Assembly (NCBI GenBank): GCA_964016885.1
Contig: OZ024743.1
Coordinates: forward strand, 41,912,001-41,976,000
Reading direction: 5' to 3'
DNA from: Eledone cirrhosa
Lineage: Eukaryota
DNA: 64,000 nt
Shown piece by piece: positions 9,716 through 12,307 of the stretch (position 1 is the stretch's first letter; each line of letters begins with the position of its first letter). Position numbers and translations under genes: made by a program. The notes under the pieces are model-generated. The model searched no databases, was not told the origin of the DNA, and was given only the letters and a program-made list of their open reading frames with translations.

Positions 9716-12307
9716 AAATTGGAATAAATGCTCTGAAATAGCGATATATATGTGAATATAGACATAGAATATTCGAAAATATTCTGTATGTTTATAATAA
9801 ACATTTTGAAGACCTAATCGCTATAGAATAGAATACGTCACGTATTACAATTAGATTCTCGACAAAAGCAAGGGAAGTAATCTACGCGTTTCATTCTCGT
9901 TAGAAATCATCAGGACTACATATCCAGTGCTTTTATCGAGAATGACACAGCTAGAGACTTATAGAATACTTAGCTGTGTACAGGAACTGGTTTGAAAGAG
10001 CGGTTGCCGGTCCGGCAGAAATTAGAAATTGGAATAAATGCTCTGAAATAGCGATATATATGTGAATATAGACATAGAATATTCGAAAATATTCTGTATG
10101 TTTATAATAAACATTTTGAAGACCTAATCGCTATAGAATAGAATACGTCACGTATTACAATTAGATTCTCGACAAAAGCAAGGGAAGTAATCTACGCGTT
10201 TCATTCTCGTTAGAAATCATCAGGACTACATATCCAGTGCTTTTATCGAGAATGACACAGCTAGAGACTTATAGAATACTTAGCTGTGTACAGGAACTGG
10301 TTTGAAAGAGCGGTTGCCGGTCCGGCAGAAATTAGAAATTGGAATAAATGCTCTGAAATAGCGATATATATGTGAATATAGACATAGAATATTCGAAAAT
10401 ATTCTGTATGTTTATAATAAACATTTTGAAGACCTAATCGCTATAGAATAGAATACGTCACGTATTACAATTAGATTCTCGACAAAAGCAAGGGAAGTAA
10501 TCTACGCGTTTCATTCTCGTTAGAAATCATCAGGACTACATATCCAGTGCTTTTATCGAGAATGACACAGCTAGAGACTTATAGAATACTTAGCTGTGTA
10601 CAGGAACTGGTTTGAAAGAGCGGTTGCCGGTCCGGCAGAAATTAGAAATTGGAATAAATGCTCTGAAATAGCGATATATATGTGAATATAGACATAGAAT
10701 ATTCGAAAATATTCTGTATGTTTATAATAAACATTTTGAAGACCTAATCGCTATAGAATAGAATACGTCACGTATTACAATTAGATTCTCGACAAAAGCA
10801 AGGGAAGTAATCTACGCGTTTCATTCTCGTTAGAAATCATCAGGACTACATATCCAGTGCTTTTATCGAGAATGACACAGCTAGAGACTTATAGAATACT
10901 TAGCTGTGTACAGGAACTGGTTTGAAAGAGCGGTTGCCGGTCCGGCAGAAATTAGAAATTGGAATAAATGCTCTGAAATAGCGATATATATGTGAATATA
11001 GACATAGAATATTCGAAAATATTCTGTATGTTTATAATAAACATTTTGAAGACCTAATCGCTATAGAATAGAATACGTCACGTATTACAATTAGATTCTC
11101 GACAAAAGCAAGGGAAGTAATCTACGCGTTTCATTCTCGTTAGAAATCATCAGGACTACATATCCAGTGCTTTTATCGAGAATGTCATTCTCGATAAAAG
11201 CACTGGATATGTAGTCCTGATGATTTCTAACGAGAATGAAACGCGTAGATTACTTCCCTTGCTTTTGTCGAGAATCTAATTGTAATACGTGACGTATTCT
11301 ATTCTATAGCGATTAGGTCTTCAAAATGTTTATTATAAACATACAGAATATTTTCGAATATTCTATGTCTATATTCACATATATATCGCTATTTCAGAGC
11401 ATTTATTCCAATTTCTAATTTCTGCCGGACCGGCAACCGCTCTTTCAAACCAGTTCCTGTACACAGCTAAGTATTCTATAAGTCTCTAGCTGTGTCATTC
11501 TCGATAAAAGCACTGGATATGTAGTCCTGATGATTTCTAACGAGAATGAAACGCGTAGATTACTTCCCTTGCTTTTGTCGAGAATCTAATTGTAATACGT
11601 GACGTATTCTATTCTATAGCGATTAGGTCTTCAAAATGTTTATTATAAACATACAGAATATTTTCGAATATTCTATGTCTATATTCACATATATATCGCT
11701 ATTTCAGAGCATTTATTCCAATTTCTAATTTCTGCCGGACCGGCAACCGCTCTTTCAAACCAGTTCCTGTACACAGCTAAGTATTCTATAAGTCTCTAGC
11801 TGTGTCATTCTCGATAAAAGCACTGGATATGTAGTCCTGATGATTTCTAACGAGAATGAAACGCGTAGATTACTTCCCTTGCTTTTGTCGAGAATCTAAT
11901 TGTAATACGTGACGTATTCTATTCTATAGCGATTAGGTCTTCAAAATGTTTATTATAAACATACAGAATATTTTCGAATATTCTATGTCTATATTCACAT
12001 ATATATCGCTATTTCAGAGCATTTATTCCAATTTCTAATTTCTGCCGGACCGGCAACCGCTCTTTCAAACCAGTTCCTGTACACAGCTAAGTATTCTATA
12101 AGTCTCTAGCTGTGTCATTCTCGATAAAAGCACTGGATATGTAGTCCTGATGATTTCTAACGAGAATGAAACGCGTAGATTACTTCCCTTGCTTTTGTCG
12201 AGAATCTAATTGTAATACGTGACGTATTCTATTCTATAGCGATTAGGTCTTCAAAATGTTTATTATAAACATACAGAATATTTTCGAATATTCTATGTCT
12301 ATATTCA
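9716..12307. repeat. Tandem array of 310-bp hammerhead-containing units, inverted about 11185
   Basis: GGAATAAATG recurs at 9721, 10031, 10341, 10651 and 10961. After GAGAATG-T-CATTCTC at 11185 the same unit runs in reverse complement to 12307. (TA)n lies at both ends. Confidence 0.97.
11211..11253 (+). ncRNA. Minimal type I hammerhead ribozyme (also + at 11521, 11831, 12141; - at 9877, 10187, 10497, 10807, 11117)
   Basis: GTAGTC-CTGATGA-TTTCTAACGAGAAT-GAAA-CGCG-TA-GATTAC. Stem I is GUAGUC/GAUUAC, stem II is UUCU/AGAA, stem III is the palindromic ACGCGU, and the site is GUA. Confidence 0.85.

Follow-up and report, generated by a model that had tools for sequence, protein, structure and literature searches.

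The 64,000-nt window analyzed here (Eledone cirrhosa assembly GCA_964016885.1, contig OZ024743.1, positions 41,912,001 to 41,976,000) contains, at positions 9716 to 12307, a head-to-head array of a 310-bp unit with a GC content of 0.35 (TRF and sequence count). The left arm (9716 to 11184, minus strand in the ribozyme sense) holds 4.74 antisense units with 0 mismatches at a lag of 310, and the right arm (11183 to 12307, plus strand) holds 3.63 sense units and is free of lag-310 mismatches up to 12308. The initial annotation had described about 4.7 identical units followed by about 3.6 inverted ones, folded into a palindrome of about 2.2 kb, and this description holds: the palindrome (10063 to 12307; 2,245 bp) is perfect, with arms of 1,122 nt centered on T11185. 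The 1-nt spacer placed at 11185 is indeed the center of the palindrome, but the arms themselves overlap there by a 2-nt TG microhomology (11183 to 11184) at a junction joining unit positions 249 and 246 (11183 to 11187). Unit positions are counted from window position 11248, the first base past the predicted GUA cleavage. The longest ATG frame inside one unit encodes 30 amino acids, and the unit thus has no coding capacity.

The array lies in a microsatellite target, remnants of which are an (AT)7 run on the left (9702 to 9715, read from the sequence) and an (AT)n run on the right (12308 to 12404, TRF). Because both flanks are (TA)n, a target-site duplication is not readable there. The left arm ends at unit 167 (site B) and the right arm at unit 130 (site A), and the left outer end thereby extends past the right one by a one-sided “tail” corresponding to unit 131 to 167 (9716 to 9752, minus strand). 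What the initial annotation had overlooked is that both outer ends are RNA 3′ ends at two fixed sites in (TA)n, a signature of Penelope-like elements (PLEs). The putative priming region, delimited by the outer ends of 74 insertions and by sister-family conservation, covers unit 124 to 172 (11371 to 11419 on the plus strand in one unit) and includes the AU tract of site A (unit 130 to 139) and site B (unit 165 to 172). Elsewhere in the window, unrelated short tandem repeats are found at 48493 to 48828 (170 bp), 52938 to 53163 (120 bp), and 53604 to 53974 (93 bp).

Each unit carries a type I hammerhead motif. As previously counted, there are nine, four on the plus strand (11211 to 11253, 11521 to 11563, 11831 to 11873, and 12141 to 12183) and five on the minus strand (11159 to 11117, 10849 to 10807, 10539 to 10497, 10229 to 10187, and 9919 to 9877; span, 9877 to 11159), so that all 9 complete positions are occupied. 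The motif consists of a 6-bp helix I (GUAGUC/GAUUAC), the core elements CUGAUGA and GAAA, a helix II whose basal position is a U.U, and a one-pair helix III formed by the palindrome ACGCGU; cleavage is predicted after the GUA ending at 11247. In every unit, the motif sits on a 16-bp helix with one G-U pair (11187 to 11202 with 11260 to 11275, plus strand), the long helix (11187 to 11275) noted earlier, which folds with a z score of −5.75 and was equaled in stability by 0 of 200 shuffled sequences; taken by itself, the 63-nt ribozyme part does not stand out (z = −0.86). At gathering thresholds, Rfam gave 0 matches in the 64-kb window, and below threshold it gave an HH9 match only (14.9 bits; E value, 0.86). 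Since this match is subthreshold, the hammerhead call rests on the reading of the core motif and on covariation in sister families. The window has two further cores that resemble a hammerhead and stand isolated, at 47293 (minus strand) and 21279 (plus strand).

The two sister families, with units of 315 and 318 nt and about 2,800 candidates each, share unit 59 to 235, including both priming sites, with the 310-nt family and have the same head-to-head, one-tail layout. Their long helix is rebuilt from different letters, and in one of them the C3-G8 core pair is replaced by U3-A8. This covariation supports selection on the predicted ribozyme and helix. Both sister families are older, their hammerheads differ from that of the 310-nt unit, and copies were seen at L157:1480-1794 (minus strand), L175:1523-1840 (minus strand), L102:2440-2870, and L080:1466-1773. 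A read-through RNA from the array would be more likely to form a 1.1-kb hairpin than to be self-processed.

A DNA search of the 3.0-Gb host assembly with the unit gave 285 matches from 39 of 211 candidates. Exact patterns of the two kinds of outer end matched 809 and 611 times on the plus strand; because a two-arm insertion has one plus-strand end, these matches suggest that insertions number about 1,400 or more. Scaling up from the 51 insertions in the first 80 Mb of contig C1 gives an estimate of about 1,900 genome-wide. Our estimate is therefore of roughly 1,400 to 1,900 near-identical, dispersed insertions. The term “satellite” used in the initial annotation is too narrow for such a dispersed family. 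The array in the window is real in the assembly, and as a single locus it is not special among its family.

For closer comparison, 74 insertions were used: those of the window, of the 20 top-scoring loci, and of all 50 pattern-listed places in the first 80.3 Mb of C1, and 51 of the 74 were obtained by following up, without exception, the matches to the A-end and B-end patterns in the first 80 Mb of that contig. The antisense-then-sense, head-to-head arrangement is present in 64 of them, and at both ends of these insertions the RNA 3′ direction faces outwards. The other 10 have one arm only, with an A end in 8 cases; one of the 10 is interrupted by a gap, and one has a second arm of 7 nt. One insertion (L071) is present twice across an N gap, with sporadic variants shared, and is an assembly duplicate.

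The outer ends fall at two places in the unit. Site A ends lie at unit 124 to 147, mostly at 130 or 139, at the AU tract, and site B ends lie at unit 155 to 175, mostly at 165. Two of the 64 two-arm insertions are interrupted by a gap or by the edge of the retrieved sequence, and all 62 classifiable ones (61 without the duplicate L071) have one A end and one B end, in either order; there was no A+A and no B+B insertion. If the sites were chosen independently, half of the insertions would be A+A or B+B, and since every listed end was retrieved, such insertions would have appeared in the C1 sample. The strict pairing suggests that the two priming events are coupled. The same 62 insertions all have a one-sided tail of 30 to 40 nt, the footprint of PLEs, and the flanks of the examined insertions show an AT-rich or (TA)n target.

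In contrast to the outer ends, which are fixed, the arm ends at the central junctions are spread all round the unit (Rayleigh test, p = 0.39; 120 ends). Inserted bases are present at 9 of 60 central junctions, and among the 51 junctions without them, 30 show an overlap of at least 2 nt, compared with 18% expected by chance in simulation. At the 58 junctions that remain after duplicates are left out, the cleavage site coincides with just 1 of the 116 arm ends, which indicates that the enzyme reads through this site.

Among 39 insertions in which each arm has at least two units, 18 haplotypes were found, 12 of them seen once. The haplotype is identical in both arms in 37 of the 39, compared with 149 of 1,482 (10%) arm pairs taken across insertions. 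The exceptions are L036, whose arms are set apart by no more than a 20-nt duplication in one unit, and L093, a true mosaic in its B arm; in addition, L033 has one odd unit. Private variants (e.g., 310T in L036, 258C in L039, and 259G in L057) are fixed in every unit of both arms. Variation within insertions amounts to 108 of 182,486 bases (0.06%), and haplotypes are fixed over whole insertions, which bears out the very recent origin assumed in the initial annotation and lends support to its proposal of repeated reverse transcription round the 310-nt unit. An A-to-I editing footprint was considered and rejected, as only 3 of the 108 sporadic changes are A>G. No excess of variants that could represent ligation scars was found at the cleavage site (6 observed, 3.8 expected).

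In the C1 sample, the lengths of the arms agree with an exponential distribution (86 arms; mean, 1,537 nt; Kolmogorov-Smirnov p = 0.34), and the longest arms reach 27 units. One haplotype per insertion suggests a one-unit template, and together with the exponential arm lengths it would match a constant rate of drop-off from a monomer that is read again and again. In L064, variants are repeated at a spacing of seven units, and variants common to several units also occur in L040, L061, and L065; these patterns show some local duplication or a multimeric template. The longest arms probably also grew locally after insertion.

On the sequence-level features examined, the 310-nt family is classed with the non-LTR retrozymes, a known kind of element. 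Metazoan non-LTR retrozymes, as described for newt satellite 2, axolotl, Mytilus, and Acropora (PMC7229834), likewise have low-GC tandem units of 150 to 450 bp, a single type I hammerhead in each unit, numerous dispersed arrays, and a self-paired predicted circle. The one-pair helix III with a palindromic tetraloop is as in HHR_Amex1, and the U.U at the base of helix II is as in HHR_Amex2 (PMC7229834). As far as that description was consulted, the present family is set apart from the metazoan retrozymes by arms that stand head-to-head, by paired ends at fixed sites, by the tail, and by the (TA)n target. Expression and circles have been demonstrated for metazoan retrozymes (PMC7229834) and are predicted for the 310-nt family. 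No description of a head-to-head, paired-end layout for retrozymes was found in the main texts of open-access papers.

The insertion footprint resembles that reported for the EN+ PLEs Neptune/Nematis and Naiad (10.1101/2021.04.23.441226; PMC3846280; PMC11167929), which share with this family (i) an inverted 5′-truncated copy and a tail of 30 to 40 nt at one end and (ii) a (TA)n target, microhomology at junctions, and a hammerhead about 130 to 180 nt upstream of the ends. The 310-nt family differs from them in encoding no protein and in that an arm consists of many turns of the 310-nt unit, as opposed to a partial tandem of a multi-kilobase element. A link between retrozymes and PLEs goes back to a proposal of 2020, and the case for it is made in a 2026 preprint (10.64898/2026.07.22.740005). 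That preprint, which treats retrozymes as nonautonomous PLE derivatives, agrees with our analysis on the helper; it reasons from co-occurrence and pLTR homology and favors local amplification, while the evidence here is an insertion footprint.

PLEs are present in the same genome. Loci were sought by a GIY-YIG profile, and 50 GIY-YIG loci and 10 further young PLE loci were taken from more than 10,000 candidates. Young elements with a reverse transcriptase (RT), a C-terminal GIY-YIG domain, and a CxxxxCxxC linker are abundant, and we call them Neptune-like, a tentative name taken from the linker motif only. In one family, copies are 99% identical in the RT, with frames of 796 to 1,289 codons. 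Several PLEs have hammerheads that share the U.U and the palindromic helix III of the 310-nt unit, and they end in (TA)n at two alternative points, with head-to-head copies and one-sided tails. Protein-coding PLE copies stand head-to-head in L146 and L136; in L146, the long end (tail) is on one arm and the short end is on the other.

A PLE terminal repeat homologous to the unit was found at 0 of the 60 loci, where the matches were only sister-retrozyme insertions and hammerhead look-alikes. Likewise, local alignment of the unit to the terminal repeat of one PLE family gave scores near those of shuffled sequences in three of four cases, and the fourth was a TA-run match. The 3′ repeat of L133 ends in ...CAGACATTTTCCAAT before (AT)n and resembles site B; since the stretch is short and rich in AT, it is no more than a lead to the helper, and its likeness to the tail is not kept in the sister families. 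A small hammerhead family (L140:7990-8210, L149:3620-3830, and L136:1170-1315) has a helix II (TTTCTAAAGAAT) close to that of the 310-nt unit and makes very small head-to-head insertions in (TA)n, in which the one-sided tail is longer. Further hammerhead-bearing repeat families, some of them tandem, are found in L048 (about 1077), L141 (8562 to 9600), L033 (about 2883), and L137 (about 603).

We consider it probable that the 310-nt family is a non-LTR retrozyme mobilized by a Neptune-like PLE, in which both strands of a (TA)n target would serve as primers for the reverse transcription of a monomeric, likely circular RNA. The observed part of this mechanism consists of the layout, the two fixed ends, the scattered junctions with microhomology, the single haplotype per insertion, and the PLEs with the same footprint. 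The remaining steps would be as follows. The 310-nt arrays would be transcribed, and hammerheads with a weak helix III would cleave as dimers to give monomers, which a host ligase would circularize. A PLE protein with RT and GIY-YIG endonuclease activity would nick both strands of a (TA)n run; one target strand would prime at A, where the AU tract can pair with a TA primer, and the other would prime at B, about 30 nt further 3′. Each enzyme would then circle the RNA until random drop-off, and the two cDNA ends would anneal by 1 to 8 nt, followed by fill-in.

Several of these steps have precedents. Dimer dependence has been reported for hammerhead motifs of this kind (PMC4209133; PMC7229834), and animal retrozymes form circles (PMC7229834). 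Since 8 of 9 Xenopus retrozyme dimers were uncleaved in vitro (10.64898/2026.07.22.740005), the presence of the motif is no proof of activity. PLEs are described as leaving an inverted 5′-truncated copy and a one-sided tail of 30 to 40 bp, with a bias toward (TA)n (10.1101/2021.04.23.441226), and the protein of an anole PLE, a predicted dimer, makes nicks in both strands and extends them, starting at two internal sites by which the tail is bounded (PMC11167929). Against our explanation stand the 10 one-armed insertions among the 74, the search of 60 PLE-bearing loci that found no terminal repeat homologous to the unit, the mosaic L093 and the odd unit of L033, and the repeated variants in L040, L061, L064, and L065. 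In addition, the tract at site A is like the target, but the anole element began at sites nonhomologous to the cut DNA (PMC11167929).

In twin priming of the LINE-1 type, both target strands prime cDNA, resulting in an inversion joined by microhomology; the second primer is extended at a variable internal site, and the two arms are contiguous on the RNA. The 310-nt family differs in that both starts are fixed. Twin priming of this type on one linear RNA was rejected, as an end falls in unit 124 to 175 at just 11 of the 58 junctions, fewer ends than chance would give. The contiguous-arm pattern is present, as a contrast to the retrozyme, in the left neighbor of the array, 15 bases away (8410 to 9701), a disrupted RT fragment of the LINE type that itself carries a 5′ inversion. 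Its plus-strand part (9198 to 9701; Pfam RVT_1) ends in ...VKAK, and the frame resumes on the minus strand from about 9205 (...EAKRISDAE), with AGGCGAAAA common to both.

The inverted layout could also arise if a single primed cDNA snapped back, or switched template onto itself, so that the second arm copied the first. Self-priming has been proposed for PLE inversions (PMC3846280), and it would account for the microhomology and for the common haplotype of the two arms, with no need of a second priming event. Also in keeping with it, the strands of the long helix hold 22 of the 116 arm ends at the 58 nonduplicate junctions, where 12 are expected (1.8-fold; p = 0.005; region chosen post hoc), with the other 94 lying outside these strands, and three junctions (L052, L064, and L080) use an intrinsic 8-nt hairpin match. 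Yet a copied arm cannot outgrow its template, and the B arm is the longer one in 32 of 60 insertions and the A arm in 28, so no single order fits; the position of the far end at the other fixed site in 62 of 62 insertions is left unexplained, and near-symmetric junctions number 5 of 60 (3.3 expected). A sporadic variant is found in both arms only in L064, compared with 97 singletons, a weak argument because many of the latter are later mutations or assembly errors. At the junction of the array itself, for which the initial annotation had proposed a fold-back at the base of the helix, extension of a helix-folded cDNA would add CTAATTG, but the actual continuation is TCATTCTC, which differs from the helix partner. 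We regard a snap-back origin as unlikely.

Dual priming by a PLE could instead operate on linear multimers, or on separate monomers of one source array, with arrays lengthened later by unequal crossing-over and no circle, and to this we assign the same low probability as to a snap-back. In vitro, unprocessed RNA served the anole PLE (PMC11167929), local amplification has been proposed (10.64898/2026.07.22.740005), and four long arms with block duplications, together with the mosaic L093, point in this direction. For L093 and the odd unit of L033, one circle is a poorer explanation than two templates or later conversion, and arms of the same haplotype would also follow if one source array supplied all the RNA in a cell. 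On the other hand, private variants fixed in all units need a bottleneck of one unit in each round, variation within insertions is just 0.06%, and arrays would shorten each round, yet arms of up to 27 units exist; nor are variants or ends overrepresented at the cleavage site, a trace that might be expected if the enzyme jumped from one linear monomer to another. Finally, the palindrome could be a fold-back read or an assembly artifact. No read or contig spanning the central junction was found in four sequencing runs (region 11140 to 11480), and L071 is duplicated across a gap. Against this, the two flanks of the array are unrelated, with no mirror symmetry beyond the arms, 64 loci have different junctions and the same two biologically patterned ends, and an independent run (X2) contains junctions of unit 139 to (TA)n, which makes an artifact very improbable.

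Between 70 and 96% of the words of the unit occur in 20 public sequencing runs from 17 studies and 18 organism codes; among the runs listed as containing the unit, there was no RNA run. In comparison with region 11140 to 11480, run X2 yielded 575 contigs with family variants and the unit-139-to-(TA)n junctions, like a true host genome, while X1 and X9 each have one 340-nt circular contig (depths of 6.7 and 34, respectively); the raw Hi-C reads of X23, from one of the organisms listed, gave 0 matching reads in about 1% of the run. The likeliest explanation for the spread over runs is carry-over of a very high-copy repeat between libraries. That the 310-nt circle, besides being reverse transcribed by a paired PLE enzyme bound at two fixed sites of a single molecule, also moves between species in a viroid-like manner seems improbable to us.

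Dual priming by a Neptune-like PLE on a likely circular RNA, as proposed here, bears on two questions that the published papers call open. One is the identity of the enzyme that mobilizes animal retrozymes, together with the role of the circle as a template; the other is how PLEs make tandem or inverted insertions with a one-sided tail. Because the family is very young, it offers more than 1,000 readable footprints, an unusually clean record of PLE-type insertion from a probable RNA circle, and it names exact sites (unit 130 to 139 and 165 to 172) together with a 310-nt substrate. If the proposed mechanism is true, the family would be a natural case of a circular RNA written into the genome at (TA)n sites.
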